Positions 3,332 to 18,236 of a DNA stretch of 24,000 nucleotides are shown here, one piece after another. The notes beneath the pieces were generated by a model. It was not told where the DNA came from and searched no databases. It worked only from the letters and a program-made list of their open reading frames with translations. The first letter of the stretch is position 1, and every line of letters starts with the position of its first letter. The stretch is from contig JBEDTZ010000011.1 in NCBI GenBank assembly GCA_040119265.1, positions 86,587-110,586 of the forward strand, in the 5' to 3' direction. A program made the translations under genes and the position numbers. The stretch comes from Pseudomonadales bacterium. GTDB lineage: Bacteria; Pseudomonadota; Gammaproteobacteria; Pseudomonadales; DSM-25080.

Positions 3332-3979
3332 ATGATTTCAGCTAACCTGTCACCTCAGCTTCTTCCCAGTGAACATCTAGACGCTGTTGCCACCCTGTGT
3401 CCGTGCATACGCTACACAAAAGGTGAGGTCATCCACGCGCGGAACGACGAAAAGCCGGGCTTCTCAATTATCACTCGAGGGAACGTGAAGGTGGGTAACT
3501 ATGACACGCAGGGCAACTACCTGTTAACTCAGGTTTTAGGGGAGCTAGAGATTTTCGGCGAAATCACCCTGTTCACCCATTACGCCCGAAGTCATACGGT
3601 TGAGGCGCTTTCGGATTGTGAGATTATTCAAGTTAGCCGTGAAAACTATGAGCGCTACGCCGTTCAATCACCCTCTATTAAAGATGTGATGCTAAGCATG
3701 CTGGCGGAGAAGTTACGCACCTGTGTGGATTTAATGGATGACCTACGCCATCTCACGGTTACTCAGCGCCTTGCCAAATTGCTGCTAAATTTCGCCGCGG
3801 CCAAAGATGCCTCACATGTGAAACTGCGCCAAAGTGATCTGGCCGATCATCTAGGCCTGACGGTACTTACTGTTCACCGAGCGCTAAAGCGACTGGCCAG
3901 TGAAGGGCTCATCGAGCTGAAATATGGTGGTATAGAAGTCGTCAATGCCTCAGAACTAGCGCGCTTTGCGCAGCGCTAG
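3332..3979 (+). CDS. Crp/Fnr-family transcriptional regulator
   Basis: 215 aa. The N-terminal half resembles a cNMP-binding beta-roll (GEVIHARNDEKPGFSIITRGNVKV...FGEITLF). The C-terminal HTH is RQSDLADHLGLTVLTVHRALKRLASEGLI. It is divergent from the hydroxylase gene. Confidence 0.8.
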   Translation: MISANLSPQLLPSEHLDAVATLCPCIRYTKGEVIHARNDEKPGFSIITRGNVKVGNYDTQGNYLLTQVLGELEIFGEITLFTHYARSHTVEALSDCEIIQVSRENYERYAVQSPSIKDVMLSMLAEKLRTCVDLMDDLRHLTVTQRLAKLLLNFAAAKDASHVKLRQSDLADHLGLTVLTVHRALKRLASEGLIELKYGGIEVVNASELARFAQR

Positions 3980-8167: not shown

Positions 8168-11023
8168 ATGAAAAACCTCTTTGTAGGCCTGATAACAGCC
8201 GTCATGGTTACGGCTTGCTCACCAGCGGACCAGCAGAGCAGTGATACCAGTAATCAAGCGGGCACGGATTTCTCGCTGGATTACGAGTACTACCAGCTTG
8301 ATAACGGCTTGAACGTCATTTTGCACCGCGATGACTCGGATCCTATTGTGGCCGCTGCGACCATTATTCATGTAGGTTCATCACGTGAAGAAACCGGTAG
8401 AACTGGCTTCGCGCATCTGTTTGAGCATATGGCATTTAATGATTCCGAAAACGTGCCGCGCGGTGCTAACCGCCAAATGATTGAAGAGCTAGGTGGCTCC
8501 CGTAATGGTGGCACCTGGAGTGACGGCATCATTTACTACGAAGTGGTCCCCAAGGACGCCATTGAAAAGCTAATGTGGATTGATTCCGATCGCTTTGGCT
8601 ACATGATCAACACCGTTACCGAATCGGCGCTAGAGCGCGAGAAACAGGTAGTTAAAAACGAGAAGCGCCAGCGTGTAGACAACCAACCCTATGGTCACAC
8701 CGGCGCCATAATTCGCCGTGCACTCTACCCCGCAGGCCACCCCTATTCTTGGACAGTCATTGGTGAACTTGAAGACTTACAGGCGGCGACCTTAGCCGAT
8801 GTTCGCGAGTTCTACGATCGCTACTATGGTCCATCTAATGCCACCTTGGTGATTGCGGGTGATATTGATATTGAGGAAACCAAAGCACTGGTCGAAACCT
8901 GGTTTGGTGAAATTCCTGCCGGTCAGGATATCAGTGACTTGGCCCCAATGCCGGTAAATCTAGATGAGTCTATCCGTCTTTCGCACCTTGATAATTTCGC
9001 CCGGCTGCCGGAGCTGCGTATCACCATCCCAACGGTGGAGGAATACCATCCGGACAGCTATGCACTGGAAGCCTTGGCTCAGTTGTTAGCCGATGGCAAG
9101 CGCGCCCCACTCTATCGCCATGTAGTAGAAGAAGACGCCTTAGCACCGGGTGTTCGAGCCAGTCAAAATAGCAGTGAGCTAGCTGGTGAGTTCTCGATAG
9201 CGGTTCGTGGTAACGCCGGCGTTGCCCTAGATGATGTTAGCGCCTCCATTGATCGCGCTCTGGCGGACTTCGAGCAAAACGGTTTTGATGACCGCGATCT
9301 TGAGCGTATTAAAGCGGGCTTAGAAACCTCATTCTACCAAGGTGTTTCATCGGTATTAAACAAAGCCTTCCAGTTGGCAACCTATGCGGAATACGCCGGT
9401 GACCCGGGTTACTTCCAGACAGACATCCAGCGTATTCAAGCGGTCACGCGTGAAGACGTGCTGCGCGTTTATAACACCTATGTGAAAGACGCCAATGCCA
9501 TTTACACCAGCGTGGTGCCGAAGGCAGCGCCGGAGCTAGTACTTGCTGGTTCAGTAGATGCCGGCATTGTCGAAGAAGCCATTGTGGCCGGCGCGGAGCC
9601 GACCTTCGATGACAGCGAAGCGGACTACGAACGAACCGTTACCGTGCATGACCGCAGCGAACCACCGCTGGGCCCAATGCCGGAGATTAAAACCCCAGTA
9701 GTGAGTGATAACCTTGCCGATAACGGTGTGCGTTTACTCAACATTGAGTCCAACGAGCTACCACTATTCAACTTCGAACTCTACATCCCGGGCGGTGTCT
9801 GGCTAGAGAATGACAGCGACTATGGCGTCAACGCCCTCACCGCAAGTTTGATGAACGAGGGTACCGCCATGCGGACTCCGGCAGAACTGGAAGACGATAT
9901 CGGTCTGCTAGGTTCGTCGTTGAGTATCAATTCGTCCATGGACGGCATCATCCTTCGCGGCAGCGGCTTAGCCCGCAACTTCGAAGACACCTTGGCGATT
10001 GCGGCGGAAATGCTGCAATCACCGCGCTTTGAGCAAGCGGACTTTGACCGCCTAAAGCAGCAAACGCTAACGCGCATTCAAGCGAGTGAAACCTCGCCCA
10101 TGAGCATCGCGTCACGCGCTGCCTTTGCGACCCTATACCCCGCTGACTTCCGTGCGGCCTCACCAACCGTGGGCACCTCGGAAACTGTTAGCAATCTTGA
10201 ACTGGCTGACGTACAGGCTTTCTACCAACAGGCGATTCGCCCGAACAACGCAGCCTTTAGTGTTGCGGGCGCCCTCGATAGCGAGCGTGTGCAACGTGCC
10301 TTTAACAGCCAATTTGGTAGCTGGACTGCCGCGGCAGACACTAGCGATCAAAGCAACGCGCAAAACGAAGCTCCGGTCGCGGCGGCAACCGAACTCCCTA
10401 ACTGGGTATTCGTAGATCTGCCCGATGCTAAGCAATCGGTGCTGTTCATGGCTGCTCAGGGACCATCGTCCTACTCCACGGATGAATACGATTTGGATGT
10501 AGCTATTAACCGCCTAGGCGGTGGTAGTAGTGCACAGTTGTTCCAAACCCTACGTATTCAATTAGGCTATACCTACGGTGCGTATGCCACGGTCTATGGC
10601 GGGCGCTACAACGGCCCGGCTTTGGCCTATAGCAGTGTTCGCGCCAATGTCACCTCAGAGGCTATGGAAGTTTTCCAAGGGTTGATTGAAGGCTATGACG
10701 CTCAGTTTAGCGAAGCCGATTTAGCGACTACGCAGAACATTCTGATTAAATCACAGACTCGTGCCTATGAAAGCTTAGGGCAGAAAACTGGGATGCTATC
10801 GGAGATGGCTCGCTACAACCGCACTAGCGATTATGTGTCGGCACGTCAGAACCGTGTTGCCAACATGAGCACTGACCGTGTGAGTGAACTGCTAAACCAG
10901 TACCTACCACAGGACAAACTGCTGTATGTGATTGTGGGTGATAAAGCCACTCAGTACGATACGCTGGTTGAACAGCTGGGTGAACCACGTGAGCTTGACC
11001 GATGGGGACAGCCGGTGGAGTAA
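8168..11023 (+). CDS. M16-family (pitrilysin/insulinase) zinc peptidase, tandem double-unit, predicted lipoprotein
   Basis: The inverted zinc motif HLFEH occurs in GFAHLFEHMAF, with the downstream E in EREKQVVKNE. The ~950 aa length fits two M16 active/inactive domain pairs. The ATG at 8168 (AAGGGA SD 7 nt upstream) gives MKNLFVGLITAVMVTAC, a lipobox-like signal. The track start at 8141 is TTG. Confidence 0.85.
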   Translation: MKNLFVGLITAVMVTACSPADQQSSDTSNQAGTDFSLDYEYYQLDNGLNVILHRDDSDPIVAAATIIHVGSSREETGRTGFAHLFEHMAFNDSENVPRGANRQMIEELGGSRNGGTWSDGIIYYEVVPKDAIEKLMWIDSDRFGYMINTVTESALEREKQVVKNEKRQRVDNQPYGHTGAIIRRALYPAGHPYSWTVIGELEDLQAATLADVREFYDRYYGPSNATLVIAGDIDIEETKALVETWFGEIPAGQDISDLAPMPVNLDESIRLSHLDNFARLPELRITIPTVEEYHPDSYALEALAQLLADGKRAPLYRHVVEEDALAPGVRASQNSSELAGEFSIAVRGNAGVALDDVSASIDRALADFEQNGFDDRDLERIKAGLETSFYQGVSSVLNKAFQLATYAEYAGDPGYFQTDIQRIQAVTREDVLRVYNTYVKDANAIYTSVVPKAAPELVLAGSVDAGIVEEAIVAGAEPTFDDSEADYERTVTVHDRSEPPLGPMPEIKTPVVSDNLADNGVRLLNIESNELPLFNFELYIPGGVWLENDSDYGVNALTASLMNEGTAMRTPAELEDDIGLLGSSLSINSSMDGIILRGSGLARNFEDTLAIAAEMLQSPRFEQADFDRLKQQTLTRIQASETSPMSIASRAAFATLYPADFRAASPTVGTSETVSNLELADVQAFYQQAIRPNNAAFSVAGALDSERVQRAFNSQFGSWTAAADTSDQSNAQNEAPVAAATELPNWVFVDLPDAKQSVLFMAAQGPSSYSTDEYDLDVAINRLGGGSSAQLFQTLRIQLGYTYGAYATVYGGRYNGPALAYSSVRANVTSEAMEVFQGLIEGYDAQFSEADLATTQNILIKSQTRAYESLGQKTGMLSEMARYNRTSDYVSARQNRVANMSTDRVSELLNQYLPQDKLLYVIVGDKATQYDTLVEQLGEPRELDRWGQPVE

Positions 11024-11075
11024 TTACCACTTTGGGCGCATCAAGTTGCCCACCTAAATACCCTTTAAGGGAAAA

Positions 11076-11105
11076 CAAAATGCCCTCTTAGCGAGGGCAT
11101 TTTTG
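11076..11105 (+). terminator. Bidirectional rho-independent terminator after the M16 peptidase gene; also the first part of the left direct repeat
   Basis: The sequence is AAAA-ATGCCCTC-ttagc-GAGGGCAT-TTTT: an 8-bp GC-rich stem flanked by an A-tract and a T-tract, beginning 53 nt after the stop codon. Confidence 0.8.
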
Positions 11106-11196
11106 CAACTCCTTTTTGAGTCAACCCAGACTGTCTTCGCCACCTTGGGGGGACTATGAAGACTGTCTGTGCCGCCGTTGTTAAATGATGCAGCGC
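11078..11196. repeat. Left copy of the island-flanking direct repeat
   Basis: Manual alignment to 18313-18449 gives about 105 identical positions out of 119. Shared blocks include AAATGCCCTCTTAGCGAGGGCATTTTT, AACTCCTTTTTG, GACTGTCTTCGCCA, CTTGGGGGGACTATGAAGACTGTC and GCCGCCG. Confidence 0.85.
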
Positions 11197-11228
11197 TGCA
11201 ACAAAACATTTTCTGACGACTAAACACT

Positions 11229-11291
11229 TTGAGACGGTTGAGACGGTTGAGACGGTTGAGACGGTTGAGACGGTTGAGACGGTTGAGACGG
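11229..11291. repeat. Perfect tandem repeat (TTGAGACGG) x7, 9-bp unit
   Basis: Read directly from the sequence: seven identical head-to-tail 9-mers. The repeat is intergenic, 33 nt inside the left direct repeat. The 91-aa minus ORF across it (RLNRLNRLN...) is an artefact of the repeat. Confidence 0.95.
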
Positions 11292-11427
11292 ATAGTTCTA
11301 CACCAAAAAAGCAGCTGAAAGCTAGGCATTATCTTTCATAGCATTTTTAGATATAGAATCTATAGCTAAAAAGTCTATTTATTGACCCCAAAAATATTTG
11401 ACTAGCCAGTCACAATACATAAGATAG

Positions 11428-11443
11428 TGTGAACTAGATCACA
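11428..11443. promoter_or_regulatory. Consensus CRP (cAMP receptor protein) binding site upstream of the tna leader
   Basis: TGTGA-ACTAGA-TCACA matches the TGTGA-N6-TCACA consensus perfectly, with AT-rich flanks (ATAG...TTTT). Its centre is ~96 nt upstream of the leader ORF ATG. E. coli tna is CRP-dependent. Confidence 0.7.
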
Positions 11444-11531
11444 TTTTGTTTGCTTTTGATTTAGTTTTTTGATTTTTGATAAGTTAGTTTTTTATAGGTA
11501 ACAAGAGTTTAAATCTTTAATAGGAGGAGAG

Positions 11532-11657
11532 ATGTTAGTAACAAATCAAGACCATTTTACCTCTACTCCTTCCCCTTGTAGCTGGTTCAGATGGTTTACA
11601 GCTGATCCTCTTATTAAAGACTCTGTTAAATCCAGCGTTATCACTCCTTCTCTCTAA
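11532..11657 (+). CDS. Candidate tna operon leader peptide (41 codons, TnaC-like by position and W-F-x-x-D motif)
   Basis: The strong SD TAGGAGGAGAG is immediately upstream of the ATG. Translation: MLVTNQDHFTSTPSPCSWFRWFTADPLIKDSVKSSVITPSL*. It lies between the CRP box and tnaA, 122 nt upstream of the tnaA ATG. W21-F-T-A-D25 parallels E. coli TnaC W12-F-N-I-D16. It is too short to appear in the ORF track. Confidence 0.5.
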   Translation: MLVTNQDHFTSTPSPCSWFRWFTADPLIKDSVKSSVITPSL

Positions 11658-11779
11658 CTCCATTCTTAATTGAATTTGGATTTGGAGGCCAGTTGCCGCA
11701 ATTCCCATACTAAAACTACTCGCGTCTTCTGGCCATTTTGAACCTGTGAATAATGGTCCGCCAATAGTGGCGTGCTTGG

Positions 11780-13189
11780 ATGCTTATTATGAAAAATTTA
11801 CCCCAGCCCTATAAAATCAAGTCAATAGAACCCATTCAGCTACTCTCTTTCGAGCAACGCTTCAATGCGTTAGCTAAAGTTGGCTTTAATCCCTTTTTGC
11901 TACGTAGTGATGATGTCTACATCGATCTTCTTACGGATTCTGGCACCGGAGCCATGAGCCAAGAGCAATGGTCTGCCCTAATGCTGGGAGACGAGTCCTA
12001 TGCAGGCAGTCGGAGCTACTACAAGCTAGAGCAAGCTGTGCATTACATATTCAATTATCAATACACCATACCTACCCATCAGGGCAGAGGCGCTGAACAG
12101 ATCCTGTTTCCTGCTCTTATCAACAAGATGAGAAATGAGAAAGGCGGCGACAAGGCTGTATTCATCTCTAACTACCACTTTGACACTACGGCGGCGCATG
12201 TTGAGCTAAACGATGCCAAAGCGATCAATGTAGTATGCGAACAAGCTCATCAGCTTAGTGATCCCTATGATTGGAAGGGAAATTTCGATATCCCTTTGCT
12301 ACTAAAAACTATTAATACCCAAGGTCCTGAAAATATTGCTGCCATCATCATCACGATTACCTGCAATAGTATGGGTGGGCAGCCTGTTTCCATGGAGAAC
12401 ATGAGGTCCGTTTATGAAATTGCACGCGAGTTTGACATCCCGGTGGTGATGGACGCCGCGCGTTTCGCGGAAAATGCTTTCTTCATTCGTCAACGAGATC
12501 CGTTCTACCAAACGACTAGCATCGATGAAATCGTCTACCATATGTTTGAGTATGCCGATATCTTTACCATGTCCGCTAAAAAGGATGCGATGGTCAATAT
12601 TGGTGGACTTTGTTGTTTCAAAGATAACGAAGCATTGTATCGTGAAGTTCAAACCCTTTGCATCCCTATGGAGGGCTTCGCCACCTATGGCGGACTAGCT
12701 GGGCGCGATATGGAAGCGCTGGCAGTAGGTTTGTATGAATCTATCAATTTGGAGTATCTCACTGCTCGTATTGAGCAGGTAGAGCGATTAAATAATAAGC
12801 TCGCAGAGGCGGGCATCCCCGTTCAGACTCCTAGCGGCGGTCATGCGGTATTTATCGACGCCAAAGCACTCCTTCCTGACATCCCTGCTGATCAGTTCCC
12901 TGGCCATGCCTTGGCCATTGCTTTGTACCTTGAAGCAGGAATTAGATCGGCTGAAATCGGCTCACTCCTTCTAGGGAGAGACCCTCAAACGGGGATCCAA
13001 AAGACCTCTCCAACGGAGCTTTTGCGGCTAGCAATTCCTCGACGTACCTATACTAATGAGCACATTGATTATGTCGCCGAAAGCGTCATTAAAGTTGCGC
13101 AGCGTAAACAGGAAATTCCTGGCTATAGATTTACCTACGAGCCTCAAGTCTTACGTCACTTTCTCGCCGAGTTTGAAGCAGTCGCTTAA
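11780..13189 (+). CDS. tnaA: Tryptophanase (tryptophan indole-lyase), PLP-dependent beta-eliminating lyase
   Basis: Colinear from recall with E. coli TnaA along its whole length: [77 protein letters not shown]-lysine block [21 protein letters not shown] and YEPQVLRHF. These blocks fit TnaA better than tyrosine phenol-lyase (GNMYFTTT, MSGKKDCLV). The start could instead be the ATG at 11789. Confidence 0.92.
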
Positions 13190-13272
13190 TTAATCCGAAG
13201 TAACAACAGTCACGCTAAAAATTTCAATAACAGAGCGTGACTGTTAATCAATTAATACTGCAAGGAGTTTCT

Positions 13273-14547
13273 ATGAAAGATTCAAATCTCAGCAAGCCTG
13301 ACAAGGCCGCTTCGATAATCTATGGAGCAGCTGTAATCTTCAGTACCGCCGTGGGCGTGGGGATGATGAGCCTTCCTATTGTAAGCGTGGGAATGTGGTT
13401 TAGCCTGAGTGTGGTCGTTATTATCCTGACAGCATTCTATGTTATTTCTGCTGGTAGCTTGATACTTGAAGTGAGCATGCGCTACCCCCAAGATACCGGC
13501 ATTCATACTATGGTAGATAGCCTACTTGGAAAGCGACACGCTTTCTGCAATGCATCGGTAATGCTGTTTAATGGTTATATTCTTCTTTATGCCTACCTAA
13601 CAGCGGGCAGTGAAGCCATACAATTTTACGTTGAAAAAGCCACTGAGCAGCCCCTTGGCTCAACCGCCTCAGGACTTCTATTTGCCCTAATTTTTAGCTT
13701 TATCCTCTTTCTGCGTCCACTCTCCATAAGTCGCTTTCTGAGTATCTTCATCACACTGATGATCCTGTCATTTATTTATGTTGCCTATTCGTTAGCGATA
13801 AAGATTGACCTAGAGAATTTAGTTGCTTCACAGCAGGGCCTAATTCGTCAATTTTCACTCGCACCCTATGCCGTCGTCGCCTTGCCATTTTTTGCTGCCG
13901 CATTGGGGTACCAACAAACAATTCCAATGCTAAGAAATCTCTACAACAACGATGCCACCAAGGTATTTAAAGCAATTATTTTAGGAGTCTGTGGCGTAGC
14001 CACACTGTATCTCTGTTGGCTGACCCTGACGATGGGAAATCAAACTCAAACTGAGATGATTACAAAGCTATCCTCAGGCAACAATCGCATCGAGGATTTA
14101 GTTTCAACACTAAGTCACAGTGTTGAACTCAAGGCATTAATGTTCCTCTTTGTTCAATTAGCTGTTGTCACCTCGTTTATCGGCGTAGCAAAGGGGGTTC
14201 TTGATTACCTCACCGATATTTTTGTCAATCATCTACAGCTCTCGTCAAAATATGCCAAAGTTTTGGTAATTCTGCCTCCCCTAACGATGTCGCTGTTATT
14301 CCCTTACGGCTTCCTTCTTGGAATCGGCTTCGCCGGTTTAACAGGCGCGATTTGGGGCGGCCTTTATCCGTCATTACTAGCACTAAAGATCGAACAAAAG
14401 CCACCGCTTAGAGGTATGAGCTTTAAAACCCCAGGCGGCAGATTTACCCCGTGGTTCACGCTGCTATTCAGCCTTGTGATTGTCGCAGCTATCTTACTTA
14501 GCCTCTTCGATTTACTACCGCAATATCCCGCTATAGAGGAGCAATAA
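13273..14547 (+). CDS. tnaB: Aromatic amino acid (tryptophan) permease, TnaB/Mtr/TyrP (HAAAP) family
   Basis: About 11 TM segments. Recalled similarity to E. coli TnaB includes GAAVIFSTAVGVGMMSLP, LLYAYLTAG, LAVVTSFIGVAKGVLDYLTDIF and FPYGFLLGIGFAGL. It lies directly downstream of tnaA. The ATG at 13273 follows an AAGGAG SD; the track start at 13237 is GTG. Confidence 0.85.
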   Translation: MKDSNLSKPDKAASIIYGAAVIFSTAVGVGMMSLPIVSVGMWFSLSVVVIILTAFYVISAGSLILEVSMRYPQDTGIHTMVDSLLGKRHAFCNASVMLFNGYILLYAYLTAGSEAIQFYVEKATEQPLGSTASGLLFALIFSFILFLRPLSISRFLSIFITLMILSFIYVAYSLAIKIDLENLVASQQGLIRQFSLAPYAVVALPFFAAALGYQQTIPMLRNLYNNDATKVFKAIILGVCGVATLYLCWLTLTMGNQTQTEMITKLSSGNNRIEDLVSTLSHSVELKALMFLFVQLAVVTSFIGVAKGVLDYLTDIFVNHLQLSSKYAKVLVILPPLTMSLLFPYGFLLGIGFAGLTGAIWGGLYPSLLALKIEQKPPLRGMSFKTPGGRFTPWFTLLFSLVIVAAILLSLFDLLPQYPAIEEQ

Positions 14548-14549
14548 CG

Positions 14550-15905
14550 ATGTTATTAAGCCAAACGCTTACCCTAGCTATAACAGCTTTACCTATCAAC
14601 CCTGACTGCCGCCTCTACTGCACACAAGAAGAGAACGAGTCATCAAACTATCTCTCAAGCTTAGTGAAAATAGACAGCGAAGCGAGCACCTTCCAAACCC
14701 CATCACGGGAGTTCCAGCTAGCTCTAAAATCTAGCTTGGACCAGGACGTCTGCCGAAGCTTAGCGAGGAACTTAGCAACCTGTAGCAAGTACCAGCTCGC
14801 TGGAGCAGCTCCCAAGAACACCGAGTTTTCAGCAAGTACTGGCTATCAATCAGAAATTACAGAAACTGGTCTTGGCTGGCAATCTGCACAAATTGACTAC
14901 TTTAGCTATACCACGGTCGCTAGCAATACTCGCTCTGGATCGAGTGATTTTTCGTCAGGAGGGATTGCAAGGTTCTACAGCGATTACCTCATTACCGACG
15001 ACGTTAAATCACGAGAGCAGATTCGCTTCAAGGTAGAGCATCGAAACAGCTATACATCAACGAGCCCTCTCAGCTTTGTACTAACTGATATCGGCGCGGT
15101 TGGACTCATTGAGCCTCAGTTCAATGACGGAGGATTTCGTCTTACTCATTTGTACTGGGAAAAAGCTTGGAATCAAAACCGTAGTAACTTGTCCTTCGGT
15201 TTTCTAGACCCTACCAACTACGTTGACACTTACCAGTTAGGTAACCCCTGGGAAGGATTTAATAATTTTATCTTCAGTACTGGTTCAGGAACCATGACCT
15301 TGCCTGACGAGAGTACTTTTGGAGTTTCTTTAAAGCAGCTATTTTACGACAACTATTACGCTATAGCGAGTATCTCAGATGCCAATGCTGACTCCACCGA
15401 TCCATTCAGTGGCCTATTCGACGGCGGACGCGTTTTTTGGTCTATCGAAGTAGGATTGATTGAATCACCGGAAAAATTTTACACCCGCAATCTCCACTTA
15501 AGCTATTGGCGGATGGATGCAGGGACTCGCCACGGAAGTGAAGTTAGCAAAGGGGTCAATGTCTCATGGGTACATCAGTTGCAAGATTGGATGCCATTTT
15601 TCCGAGCAGGCTTAAGTTCAGGCGATGCCAGCCTCCTATCCTCCAATGTAACTATAGGCTCGGGCTATCTCGGATTCTCAGACCCAAGCTCTCTACTTGG
15701 TGTGGCCTTAGGTTGGGGTAAGCCTAATGAGTCCCTGTTCGGAGCACAGCAAGAGCATCAGTTTACAACTGAGGTCTTTTATAGAACCGAACTGTTCAAC
15801 CACTTGACGCTTACGCCCAATATCCAATACCTAAAGTCGCTACCCCTCAATCCTGAACATAACGAGTCATGGGTAGCGGGGCTGCGCCTAAAATTTGCCT
15901 TTTAG
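14550..15905 (+). CDS. Outer-membrane beta-barrel porin, OprB (carbohydrate-selective porin)-like
   Basis: It starts 2 nt after the tnaB stop, with a GAGGAG SD 8 nt upstream. The sequence alternates amphipathic and aromatic-rich stretches. The C-terminal block FTTEVFYRTELFNHLTLTPNIQYLKSLPLNPEHNESWVAGLRLKFAF resembles the OprB-family terminus (E..Y......P..QY...P......G.R....F) and ends in Phe. The N-terminus MLLSQTLTLAITALPINPDC is not a canonical signal peptide. Confidence 0.55.
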   Translation: MLLSQTLTLAITALPINPDCRLYCTQEENESSNYLSSLVKIDSEASTFQTPSREFQLALKSSLDQDVCRSLARNLATCSKYQLAGAAPKNTEFSASTGYQSEITETGLGWQSAQIDYFSYTTVASNTRSGSSDFSSGGIARFYSDYLITDDVKSREQIRFKVEHRNSYTSTSPLSFVLTDIGAVGLIEPQFNDGGFRLTHLYWEKAWNQNRSNLSFGFLDPTNYVDTYQLGNPWEGFNNFIFSTGSGTMTLPDESTFGVSLKQLFYDNYYAIASISDANADSTDPFSGLFDGGRVFWSIEVGLIESPEKFYTRNLHLSYWRMDAGTRHGSEVSKGVNVSWVHQLQDWMPFFRAGLSSGDASLLSSNVTIGSGYLGFSDPSSLLGVALGWGKPNESLFGAQQEHQFTTEVFYRTELFNHLTLTPNIQYLKSLPLNPEHNESWVAGLRLKFAF

Positions 15906-15925
15906 AGAATTTATCTGTTTTCCCA

Positions 15926-15966
15926 CGCTACTACTGAGCCTACGCAAGCGGTTATTCAGAGTAGCG
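15926..15966 (+). other. Intercistronic stem-loop between the porin gene and the ibrA-like gene
   Basis: CGCTACTACTGA (15926-15937) pairs with TCAGAGTAGCG (15956-15966) with a one-base bulge. There is no T-tract, so it is not a clear intrinsic terminator. It may be a processing or stability element, or a weak boundary. Confidence 0.3.
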
Positions 15967-16020
15967 GAGGGAGATACTCCACGCGGGGCAAATCGAATAA
16001 ACACTGAGGGATCTGGTCTA

Positions 16021-17238
16021 ATGAAGAGGCACTTAACTATAGACGTTGAGCAAGCGGCTAGGGAACGAATTCGAATTCTATTTGATGAATTCGAGAGTAT
16101 CTACGTATCTTTCTCCGGAGGGAAGGACTCAGGTGTTCTGCTCAACCTAGTCATTGAAGAAGCACGCAAGCGTGACAGGCTCCCCGTGGACGTACTCATT
16201 ATTGATCTTGAAGCGCAGTTTGAACATACCATAGCCTACATTTTAGAGATGGTTAATCGGCCTGATATAAATGCTTTTTGGGTTTGCCTACCTCTAAGCC
16301 TGCGCAATGCAGTATCACAATTTCAGGTGAAATGGTTCTGTTGGGATCCATCAGCAATAGATGGATGGGTACGATCAAAACCCCGCCATCCTTCAGTTAT
16401 CGACAATCCTTCCAGCTTTCCCTTTTTCTACTTTGGAATGGAATTTGAAACCTTTGTTGCTGAATTCGGCAAATGGTATAGCGCGAAACGTGGCGTTCCA
16501 TCTGTGTGTCTAGTCGGTATTCGTGCAGATGAGTCGATAAATCGATACAACGCTATTAAACATCCCTCAAAGAGCAAATTACACCAACACGGCTGGACGA
16601 CCAAAGAATGCGAAAATTTCTATAAAGCCTATCCCATCTATGACTGGCATGTGACCGACATCTGGATTGCTAACGGTCGCTTCAAATGGTCTTACAACCG
16701 CATCTACGACTTAATGCACCAGGCAGGTCTAACACTTTCTCAACAGCGAGTTTGTCAGCCTTTTGGCGACGATCAACGCAAGGGTTTGTGGCTCTATCAA
16801 ATTCTGGAAGCATCAACCTGGCAGAAGCTGGTATCTAGGGTTGCTGGCGCCAACTTCGGTAGTCGATATAGCAAAAACCAAAGCCATATTTTAGGCCACT
16901 ATCGCTTTGATCTACCGGAGGGGCATACCTACCGTTCCTATAGCAAATACCTACTTGAGAGCATGCCGCCACACTTGGCGCAGCACTATCGAAAACGAAT
17001 ATTTAAGTTTCTAAATTGGTGGCGCAAGAACGGTAGAAAGAATGGCTTTACTCGGATTCCTGACTTTGCGGAGAGGAAATTAGAAGCGAAGAAAAAAGCT
17101 CCTAGTTGGCGACGAATCTGTAAGGTTCTCATCAAAAACGACTACTGGTGTAAAGGTTTGTCGTTTAGCCAAACCAAGCGACTCACCACTCATTACCTTG
17201 AGCTATATGAAAGCTACCTTCGGAGGGAAAAGCTATGA
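16021..17238 (+). CDS. ibrA: IbrA-like PP-loop ATP pyrophosphatase (PAPS reductase family N-domain plus a large C-terminal domain of unknown function)
   Basis: The PP-loop motif is SFSGGKDSGVLLNL near the N-terminus. Overall length (~405 aa) and the Trp/Lys/Arg-rich C-terminal half (NWWRKNGRKNGF...PSWRRICKVLIKNDYWCKGLSF) fit the IbrA/DUF3440-type family as I recall it. The ATG at 16021 is preferred over the track's upstream non-ATG start at 15895, which would overlap the porin gene. Confidence 0.75.
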   Translation: MKRHLTIDVEQAARERIRILFDEFESIYVSFSGGKDSGVLLNLVIEEARKRDRLPVDVLIIDLEAQFEHTIAYILEMVNRPDINAFWVCLPLSLRNAVSQFQVKWFCWDPSAIDGWVRSKPRHPSVIDNPSSFPFFYFGMEFETFVAEFGKWYSAKRGVPSVCLVGIRADESINRYNAIKHPSKSKLHQHGWTTKECENFYKAYPIYDWHVTDIWIANGRFKWSYNRIYDLMHQAGLTLSQQRVCQPFGDDQRKGLWLYQILEASTWQKLVSRVAGANFGSRYSKNQSHILGHYRFDLPEGHTYRSYSKYLLESMPPHLAQHYRKRIFKFLNWWRKNGRKNGFTRIPDFAERKLEAKKKAPSWRRICKVLIKNDYWCKGLSFSQTKRLTTHYLELYESYLRREKL

Positions 17239-17861
17239 CACTCAAAAGTGAAATTGTTGATTTATCTGGAAAGCTGTTGCATTCGTCACCAGAATTATCC
17301 TTAAAGGATCGAGTAGAAATTTTCAATCTGCTCTCCGTCTTGGCGGCTAGTATCGTGGAGTTTAAACACCCAGCGCTTAACGTCCAACTAGTTCGCACAA
17401 ACACCTTAGAAGATAACGATTACAACCCAAACGTTGTCTCCCCACCAGAATATCGTCTACTTACCCACTCAATCAGGGAGGACGGGATCACAATGCCGCT
17501 TGTGGTTGCAAAAAGCCAAGGACAAAAGCCCTATGTAGTAGTTGATGGCTACCACCGAGCACAAATTATTAAGTTTGATAAGGAGGTGAATAAATCCCTT
17601 GCCGACCACATACCGGTAGTTATTTTAGCTAAGCCGTTAGACAAGCGAATATCTTCTTCGGTTAGACACAACATGGCTAGAGGTTCACACCAAGTCAAAC
17701 TCACTGCAAAACTGATCCTTCGCCTAAAGGAGCTGAATTGGACGAACGATGAAATAGGCAAAGAACTTGGAATGGACAGCGATGAAGTCCTGAGAATGCA
17801 ACAGATCACTGGGCTTGCTGAAGCCTTTAAAAATGACGATTTTTCCACAGCGTGGGACTAA
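17235..17861 (+). CDS. ibrB: IbrB-like ParB/Srx-fold (ParB N-terminal nuclease-like) protein with C-terminal HTH
   Basis: The ParB-N pattern is YNPNVVSPPEYRLLTHSIREDGITMPLVV...YVVVDGYHRAQII (DGxHR box). The C-terminal HTH-like segment is WTNDEIGKELGMDSDEVLRMQQI. An ATGA overlap with ibrA and a GGAGGGA SD indicate translational coupling. Confidence 0.8.
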   Translation: MTLKSEIVDLSGKLLHSSPELSLKDRVEIFNLLSVLAASIVEFKHPALNVQLVRTNTLEDNDYNPNVVSPPEYRLLTHSIREDGITMPLVVAKSQGQKPYVVVDGYHRAQIIKFDKEVNKSLADHIPVVILAKPLDKRISSSVRHNMARGSHQVKLTAKLILRLKELNWTNDEIGKELGMDSDEVLRMQQITGLAEAFKNDDFSTAWD

Positions 17862-17879
17862 CTTTAGACGGAGAAAATA

Positions 17880-18236
17880 ATGAATATTTCTAGACATTAC
17901 ACTAGTGAAAGAATGAGTAAAATTGTAGTGTACAACAACTTGATTTATCTGTGTGGTCAAGTAGCGAGTGACGCCACGTCTGGGATCGCCGTACAAACAG
18001 AGAGCATGTTAGGCAAGGTAGATGATCTTCTAGAAGAGGCTAACAGTGATAAATACCATATCCTTAGCGCCACGGTTTATCTCAGCGACATGGATAATTT
18101 TAATGTTATGAACGAAGTCTGGGAGTGGTGGCTGCCGTTAGGGCACGCACCTGCCAGAGCTTGCGTTCAAGCACCCATGGCGCGCCCCGAACTGTTAGTA
18201 GAAGTTTCCGTCATTGCGGCGGTTAAAGAAAGCTAG
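17880..18236 (+). CDS. RidA/YjgF/YER057c-family protein (YoaB-like subgroup)
   Basis: 118 aa. [13 protein letters not shown]...[60 protein letters not shown] is colinear with my recollection of E. coli YoaB (..IHNNTLYYTG...ILDATIFLADKNDFAAMNKAWDAWV.AGHAPVRCTVQA......KVEIKIVAAV). A GGAG SD lies 6 nt upstream, and the gene starts 18 nt after ibrB. Confidence 0.85.

Follow-up and report, generated by a model that had tools for sequence, protein, structure and literature searches.

A predicted TnaC-related leader peptide lacking the canonical proline upstream of tnaA in an uncultured marine gammaproteobacterium

The tryptophanase leader peptide TnaC of E. coli is the textbook case of small-molecule sensing by a nascent chain, and its residues W12, D16 and P24 are treated as a defining triad. 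Based on structures at 2.4 Å, the critical residues are W12, D16, I19 and P24, and it is established how W12, F13, I15, D16 and I19 contribute to ligand binding and peptide folding: I15 contacts L-Trp, residue 13 must be aromatic and I19 is a medium-sized hydrophobic hinge between two short helices (PMC8429421). Control by Rho is the paradigm for canonical tna leaders (PMC12360218). Here we describe a 41-codon open reading frame (ORF) upstream of the tryptophanase gene tnaA in a stretch of 24,000 nucleotides (nt) from a Pseudomonadales bacterium (contig JBEDTZ010000011.1, positions 86,587 to 110,586; hereafter the window). The host is an uncultured marine gammaproteobacterium represented by a metagenome-assembled genome (MAG). 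An earlier sequence-only reading of this DNA had left two interpretations side by side, a new variant of the tryptophan-sensing arrest peptide or an unrelated leader. Conservation across a family of leaders, together with a profile alignment across the W12, D16 and I19 positions, favours the new variant.

The small ORF and its strong Shine-Dalgarno (SD) sequence are present where they had been claimed (Table 1), and W21-F-T-A-D25, K33 and the prolines P26 and P39 all read as stated. The length of 41 codons is unremarkable by itself, given that 91 ORFs of at least 20 amino acids are found in 7 kb, and the ORF had earlier been called by JGI as a 'hypothetical protein'. It is the strong SD, combined with conservation in all close relatives, that raises it above chance.

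To place the leader among its relatives, we used the window TnaA as query. In a scan of one genome per species, no TnaA came nearer than 64% identity. A large protein collection yielded closer homologues (66-80% identical), which belong to metagenomes, Vibrio mediterranei, V. chaetopteri and two Shewanella species; a metagenome scan contributed one further close locus (L092 in our numbering of fetched loci). The resulting close set has 15 loci, about 13 of them distinct, with L083/L092 and L087/L089/L172 as near kin. The same query against the PLSDB plasmids found no close members of the clade, the best match being at 63%. On Vibrio megaplasmids (V. tubiashii, V. coralliilyticus, V. europaeus), the encoded TnaA is 56-60% identical to that of the window.

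An SD-preceded, in-frame leader ORF is found in 15/15 loci with a TnaA at least 66% identical to ours and enough upstream DNA, and a leader of this family in none of the loci with a TnaA at or below 64%. Among the 174 fetched tnaA loci that we classified, 15 carry the new type, 43 the canonical W-x3-D-x7-P type, 27 a Vibrio type and 81 none (mostly Firmicutes-like). Every family leader starts behind a comparable purine-rich SD, with GTG as the start codon in L091, and the distance from leader to tnaA ranges from 54 to 144 nt. Loss or frame-shifting of the ORF in close relatives, which the sequence-only reading had named as grounds for rejecting its proposal, was not seen in the 15 loci.

The family shares the core F-x-W-[FY]-T-x-[DE]-[PT]-x-[IL]-[KN]. 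In an alignment of 14 sequences, the F at W-2, the W itself and the T at W+2 are invariant, W+1 is always F or Y, and the sensor D gives way to E in a single member. Conservation of D, P and I is 90% or more in each case, and K or N follows. Examples are ..FFDWFTVDPLIKDSVKSSFI, ..WFHWYTADPLLKFPTKRLYVI, ..HFNWFTADPQIKNPSKKLYLV, ..FSWFTREPSINLSTIRSHSF and ..FYWFTKDTSINATLQRAS, along with ..WFRWYTVDPTIKTPSNHYLYSFV from V. mediterranei and ..FCWFTQDPKIKLNFVSSPHTL from Shewanella. The N-termini and the C-terminal tails vary in both sequence and length.

This conservation has the signature of a coding constraint. For the codons F-2, W0, F/Y+1, T+2, D+4, P+5, I+7 and K+8, conservation at positions 1 and 2 is about 1.0 (0.75 at position 2 of the F/Y codon) and at position 3 only 0.38-0.69 outside W and F/Y, while the codons adjacent to the core and the flanking DNA are near background. 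Because the core codons are fixed at their first two positions and variable at the third, selection appears to act on the encoded amino acids. The check proposed earlier, an alignment of relatives for the ORF, the WFxxD motif and amino-acid-level constraint, was thus positive, with core variation confined to third positions. On this comparative evidence, we regard the 41-codon ORF as a real conserved leader peptide and not a chance ORF.

We next compared the family with canonical TnaC. The register is W21=W12, F22=F13, T23=N14, A24=I15, D25=D16, P26=N17, L27=K18, I28=I19, K29=V20 and K33=P24. Accordingly, the equivalence of W21 and D25 with W12 and D16 proposed from the sequence alone holds, but it was incomplete, as it extends to F22=F13 and I28=I19. 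The window peptide retains three of the four critical TnaC residues plus the aromatic residue at W+1, and the TnaC sensor pattern (Trp, aromatic at W+1, Asp at W+4, hydrophobic at W+7) is found in it as W21, F22, D25 and I28. Alignment of the family profile with 13 canonical TnaCs by hhalign gave a probability of 79.8% and a pairwise E value of 1.5e-5, over 16 columns only, with W, D and I in register; for peptides as short as these, we take the match to be suggestive. The probability is comparable to the level obtained for canonical versus Vibrio-type TnaC (89%); the new family and the Vibrio type match each other weakly (E 0.09).

The core residues themselves are not foreign to canonical TnaCs. 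WYTLD and WFTLD are found in those of beta-proteobacterial and other loci, and D-P-R-I in those of Citrobacter, Yokenella and Phytobacter, which places the sensor half of our family within canonical variation. We describe the leader as a probable distant relative of TnaC in which the sensing half is kept and the stalling half (R/F23-P24-stop) has given way to a tail that varies and spans 7-12 residues beyond K/N.

The main departure from TnaC is the absence of Pro at W+12 (D+8), where the window has K33. This proline is invariant in the 13 aligned canonical TnaCs, a set that was chosen by the W-x3-D-x7-P pattern. Nevertheless, Pro24 has been termed 'just semi-conserved' (PMC3082878), and R23H suppresses P24 loss-of-function mutations (PMC10941005). 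The TnaC of Proteus is described as pausing with Pro at the arrest site and two codons following it (PMC3082878). Taken together, the semi-conserved Pro24, the Proteus pausing and the R23H suppression indicate that the proline is no absolute requirement.

The position of the stop codon bears on where the ribosome would stall. After the Pro24-equivalent position, the window has 8 sense codons and the family 4-9, and the distance from W to the stop is 16-21 codons in the family versus 13-16 in canonical TnaCs. This distance, along with the use of TAA, TAG or TGA as stop, points to an internal stall instead of an arrest at termination. The same follows if the sensor must keep a set depth in the tunnel, which in E. 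coli puts W 12 residues away from the P site. The simplest prediction is that, as with Proteus TnaC, elongation arrests while the K33 codon occupies the P site. At W+12, the window peptide and the five sequences nearest to it have K, and the others R, N, Q, V, S or G. P39, which the sequence-only reading had suggested, is not conserved in the family: no member other than the window peptide has it, and in the nearest relative, whose TnaA is 80% identical, the ORF already stops at the T38 position, so that we rejected P39 as an alternative stall proline. The conserved proline of the family is P26.

We then examined the region between leader and tnaA. Homologous TnaA proteins begin at MKNLP, which sets the tnaA start at 11789 and not at the first in-frame ATG (11780); the spacer earlier given as 122 nt was counted to the latter and is 131 nt long. 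Its first two-thirds had been described as C-rich and G-poor, as expected for a Rho utilization (rut) site. For this part (11658-11745) as a whole the bias is moderate (26% C, 17% G, C/G 1.53), and two patches are strongly biased (11631-11672, which begins in the ORF tail, and 11697-11730). In this region, 78-nt intervals reach the 93rd-96th percentile of the whole window for C/G bias, and the maximal C-minus-G excess near the leader stop, 0.18 per 60 nt, is at the 96th percentile. Canonical tna leaders show an excess of 0.18-0.28 in 11/13 loci, the window being at the lower end of this range. No intrinsic terminator was found on the + strand in the leader-tnaA spacer. Base composition by itself does not establish a rut site; Rho-dependent attenuation is our best guess for the window.

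Upstream of the leader, the perfect CRP consensus in AT-rich DNA noted by the sequence-only reading is confirmed, the GC content being 0.41 for 11001-11500. Even with one mismatch allowed, it is the sole match in 24 kb, against an expectation of 0.52, and a perfect site arose in 0/500 shuffles of the 280-nt promoter region. The box is therefore beyond chance in the window. CRP activates tnaA in E. coli and V. cholerae (PMC4332508), and CRP control is plausible, judging from the site, in the window organism. Separately, three family loci, two from Vibrio and one metagenomic (L084 at 326, L085 at 2652 and L086 at 2631), share an identical 14-nt motif (AAGCAATAACTCTA) at 103-121 nt ahead of the leader ATG. 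The window does not have it, and it does not recur in the fetched loci, which total 1.08 Mb. Possible roles are those of a regulator site or promoter element.

Putting these elements together, we consider it reasonably probable that the 41-codon ORF is a translated, cis-regulatory, TnaC-related leader in which tryptophan-dependent elongation arrest near K33 induces tnaA-tnaB-oprB through Rho. At high concentration, free L-tryptophan would, as in E. coli, bind in a site flanked by the tunnel wall and the nascent W21/D25 helix, and elongation would arrest with about codon 33 in the P site. The stalled ribosome would then cover the end of the ORF, where the RNA is pyrimidine-rich and G-poor, keeping Rho off, and transcription would run into tnaA. 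When tryptophan is lacking, the ribosome would terminate at 11657, Rho would load, and transcription would end within the 131-nt spacer. The perfect CRP box would add catabolite control of the promoter in the window organism.

The output and the stall site could each be different from this proposal. With the same sensing and stalling, the stalled ribosome could instead melt a helix between the 3′ part of the leader and the ribosome-binding site (RBS) of tnaA, exposing the tnaA SD in the manner of ermC and secM-secA. In the window, the fold of 11620-11800 has z = -2.9, and AUCCAGCGUUAUCAC (11630-11644, codons 33-38) pairs with the region that includes the tnaA SD. In minimum-free-energy folds of most members, the tnaA SD pairs at or just past the leader end (UGGAU/AUCCA, UGGAC/GUCCA, AGGGGA/UCCCC, AGAGAG/CUCUCU). 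In the three Shewanella-type loci, with spacers of 54-61 nt, this pairing beats controls, being equalled by only 4/100, 4/100 and 1/100 shuffles. Yet 58/100 dinucleotide shuffles of the ORF pair equally well with the SD in the window, and 16-94/100 do so in most non-Shewanella loci. Since shuffled ORFs pair as well, the SD pairing can mostly be put down to base composition, a pyrimidine-rich ORF facing a purine-rich SD, and we dropped it as specific evidence for the window. The putative anti-SD also lies anywhere from about 15 to 60 nt from the W codon, not consistently under one stall site. As a general output, we consider RBS unmasking unlikely, though not negligible; in the short-spacer, Shewanella-type subgroup the folding models suggest that it may operate. 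Less probable still is an arrest at the conserved D25-P26 (or I28-K29), where the core would be the stalling motif and tryptophan or another signal would be sensed nearer the peptidyl-transferase centre. Such a site would account for D, P, I and K/N being best conserved after W while W+12 varies. Proline is a poor substrate for peptidyl transfer and is the A-site residue in SecM arrest, which is the general basis for a stall at D25-P26. This placement would leave W only 4-8 residues from the peptidyl-transferase centre, too near for the known L-Trp pocket (A752:U2609), which 12 residues separate from the P site; moreover, one member (L091) has T for P, and D-P-x-I is also found in canonical TnaCs that still carry the distal Pro.

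Other explanations do away with tryptophan sensing by the nascent chain altogether. The ORF could encode a small hydrophobic protein, or a leader with no relation to tryptophan, its W-x3-D likeness being convergent or coincidental. The N-terminal halves are indeed hydrophobic and rich in aromatic residues, the similarity to TnaC spans about 8 residues, the curated TnaC models match no member, and the same peptide type is not confined to tnaA, standing also before a porin gene and before the gene of an Ig-like protein. Nonetheless, a variable N-terminus with conservation confined to a polar core near the C-terminus is the pattern of an arrest peptide and not of a membrane protein. The ORF is always a 5′ leader, 54-220 nt ahead of a gene, the leader is strictly tied to one TnaA clade, and the match to the TnaC profile puts W, D and I in register, so we hold this explanation to be improbable. 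The two Trp codons W18 and W21, three codons apart in the window peptide, could also recall a trpL-style attenuator that senses charged tRNA-Trp. This would be most surprising: Trp occurs only once in several members, neither terminator nor antiterminator hairpins were found, and a catabolic operon induced by tryptophan starvation would make no physiological sense. We ruled out trpL-like attenuation on the single-Trp members and the wrong physiological logic.

A number of observations weigh against the tryptophan-dependent, Rho-mediated arrest that we favour. The curated models PF08053 and TIGR02616 match 0/14 family members, and the window peptide gives no match even at E values up to 10; as controls, E. 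coli TnaC scores 71 and 44 bits with these models and the canonical leaders are matched in 13/13 cases. At the position equivalent to I15, the family varies (A, V, Q, K, R). One member, L174 (Shewanella sp. YLB-07, around 2886), has Glu in place of the sensor Asp (WFTREPSIN), and D16E in E. coli TnaC is a loss-of-function mutation (PMC10941005). Because the W+12 residue is not conserved, no stalling motif can be named. On the RNA side, the spacer alone folds no better than shuffles (z = -0.2), and the Shewanella-type spacers of only 54-61 nt are short for Rho loading and termination before tnaA. As for the promoter, no convincing sigma-70 promoter was found downstream of the CRP box, and no -10 element or transcription start could be placed; the one + strand sigma-70 hit upstream of the leader (11398-11425) would set the start inside the CRP box. 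The CRP box is also missing from most relatives' tna promoters: only two Vibrio loci have CRP-like sites (1-2 mismatches, around 210 nt upstream of the leader), and six other loci are at chance level. By this comparison, the CRP box is not a defining feature of the leader family.

Table 1. Features of the tna region, in window coordinates
Feature	Position	Strand	Basis and remarks
Perfect CRP/Vfr-type palindrome TGTGA-N6-TCACA (TGTGAactagaTCACA)	11428..11443	.	Direct reading; centre 96.5 nt upstream of leader ATG
AT-rich run with four TTTTGAT repeats (period 7, 4 copies) between CRP box and leader	11454..11480	+	Presumed promoter region
Leader Shine-Dalgarno AGGAGGAG	11522..11529	+	Just upstream of ATG 11532
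Leader ORF, 41 codons and TAA	11532..11657	+	Encodes MLVTNQDHFTSTPSPCSWFRWFTADPLIKDSVKSSVITPSL
Conserved core codons F19-K29 (F-R-W-F-T-A-D-P-L-I-K)	11586..11618	+	14-sequence alignment, codon periodicity, hhalign
K33 codon (W+12, D+8; E. coli Pro24 position)	11628..11630	+	Predicted P-site codon of arrest; predicted toeprint near 11644
Pyrimidine-rich, G-poor tract (C14, G3 in 42 nt), ORF tail and stop	11631..11672	+	Candidate rut or boxA-like element
Predicted stem GGCCAG/CUGGCC	11688..11734	+	Encloses second C-rich stretch 11697-11730 (C12, G3)
Hairpin CGCCA-AUAG-UGGCG (11759-11772), then tnaA SD GGAUG (11778-11782)	11759..11782	+	
tnaA (tryptophanase)	11789..13189	+	Start set by homology
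tnaB-like aromatic amino acid (tryptophan) permease	13237..14547	+	TIGR00837, E 6e-77; conserved synteny
OprB-family porin	14550..15905	+	PF04966, E 6e-12

Two further RNA features recur in the family. A GC-rich hairpin stands just upstream of the tnaA SD in several members, with differing sequences (CGCCA/UGGCG in the window, CACGCU/AGCGUG at around 250-270 of L081, also GCCCUA/UAGGGC); L086 (around 2955-2975) is among these loci. CUCU-rich sequence is found at or adjoining the leader stop in most members, as at 11644-11660 of the window (UUCUCUCUAAC), in L088 (CCUCUUUAA) and in L089, L087 and L174. It resembles boxA, the consensus of which we take to be GCUCUUUAA. A scan of the whole window at the Rfam gathering thresholds matched no RNA family.

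The identity of the genes behind the leader is consistent with a tna operon. The window TnaA scores 716.7 bits against the NCBIfam model PRK13238 (cut-off 285) and fits the tyrosine phenol-lyase model much more poorly; its score is under the strict equivalog cut-off of TIGR02617. It is 100% identical to the database entry 'MAG: tryptophanase [Pseudomonadales bacterium]'. The permease is TnaB/Mtr-like and nearer to tryptophan permeases than to TyrP. As the OprB gene starts 3 nt past the tnaB stop, it is probably the last gene of the operon, and the order tnaA-tnaB-oprB is also found in L082, L083, L088, L089 and L172.

In the window (14550-18236), the OprB porin gene is followed by an IbrA-like gene (PAPS_reduct and DUF3440), a ParB_N-like gene whose match is weak and under the Pfam cut-off, and a RidA gene (L-PSP). 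A PAPS_reduct/DUF3440 and ParB_N pair is also present downstream of tnaB in V. chaetopteri (L086). The location of RidA beside a pyridoxal-phosphate-dependent beta-eliminating enzyme may reflect a functional link. Finally, between the tna promoter region and the peptidase gene that precedes it there is a perfect 9-bp tandem repeat (TTGAGACGG, seven copies, 11229-11291).

Leaders of this family are not restricted to tnaA. For example, L085 (V. mediterranei) has a second one, ..CRFHWYTVDPAINSISGKPY, at 2206-2069 on the minus strand, with its own SD and divergent from the tna leader. It is located 161 nt upstream of a gene for a Big_2/Ig-like protein of at least 1106 amino acids (1907-1, minus strand). 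A TnaC-type leader before a gene outside the tna operon would be unusual. The metagenomic locus L091 (TnaA 66% identical) has two family leaders, at 837-887 and 3775-3864: the one before tnaA reads WFTKDTSIN from its GTG-started ORF, with T for P, and the other, after tnaB, reads WFTKDPSIK and lies 220 nt upstream of a 117-amino-acid ORF and an OprB porin gene. With one copy before tnaA and one before the porin, the leader of L091 behaves as a portable module. A broader proposal, which we put forward tentatively and hold to be less likely than its opposite, is that these leaders form a new lineage of tryptophan-sensing arrest peptides that retain the sensing helix of TnaC and stall elongation but do without the canonical proline, that they serve as a portable module (OprB porin operon, large Ig-like surface protein gene), and that Shewanella-type members act by RBS unmasking and not through Rho.

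Searches with the peptide found little else. A word-indexed protein database search returned only the window's own ORF, and a full phmmer search of 1.84 billion representative proteins returned this ORF and two unrelated repeat proteins, with no relative. No paper in the searchable literature describes this leader type, although a member might be listed in the comparison by Cruz-Vera and Yanofsky in 2008. The subfamily is undescribed in curated databases and in the searchable literature, and we class it as a TnaC-superfamily leader with the sensor conserved and the stalling module apparently replaced.

If this is true, the family would provide a natural comparative system in which ligand sensing could be separated from arrest, and possibly new tryptophan-responsive parts for biosensors. 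TnaC-type control would also extend past tnaA, to a porin gene and to the gene of a large protein with Ig-like domains. Current annotation models miss these leaders entirely.

How do these leaders compare with those already described? Like E. coli TnaC (24 amino acids; PF08053 Tna_leader, TIGR02616 tnaC_leader), the window leader is a short SD-preceded ORF directly before tnaA-tnaB. It shares the W-[FY]-x-x-D-x-x-[IL] sensor in register, a region with more C than G near the leader stop and an upstream CRP site. Unlike E. coli TnaC, it has 41 amino acids instead of 24, K33 for Pro and then 8 more codons where E. coli has UGA, and its family has specific conserved residues, F at W-2, T at W+2, P at D+1 and K at D+4. 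The window operon also has an additional OprB porin gene, and its spacer is 131 nt compared to about 220 nt in E. coli.

The TnaC of Proteus vulgaris is also a longer leader with codons past the arrest position, and elongation arrest is what we predict for the window. Tryptophan reportedly inhibits elongation, not termination, in P. vulgaris TnaC, a finding attributed to Cruz-Vera, Yang and Yanofsky in 2009. Proteus TnaC keeps W-x3-D-x7-P and has only two codons after the Pro, whereas the window has Lys at this place followed by 8 codons.

The proline is also missing from the Vibrio-type leader, exemplified by V. cholerae VCA0161.1, which is annotated as TnaC (PMC4332508). Like the window leader, it has Lys and not Pro at D+8, a tail of similar length and an upstream CRP site. 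The 27 mostly Vibrio loci of this type (L001-L028 and others) encode W-Y-N-[LI]-D-[YF]-x-L-S-L-L-[SN]-K plus 2-5 residues, and the Lys at the Pro24 position is invariant in 12 aligned Vibrio-type leaders. The core differs, with LSLLSK in the Vibrio type and DPxIK in the new family. TIGR02616 matches the Vibrio type weakly (9/12, best E 0.0023) and the new family in 0/14 cases. The Vibrio type is tied to a different TnaA clade, 62-64% identical to the window TnaA in the sampled loci, and no functional study of it was found in the searchable literature.

Beyond the tna operons, SpeFL, ErmCL and SecM have no sequence relationship with the window leader, and their ligands differ. What the window leader would have in common with them is the principle by which a nascent-peptide stall changes the fate of the downstream mRNA, through Rho for SpeFL and ornithine and through translation for ErmCL and SecM.

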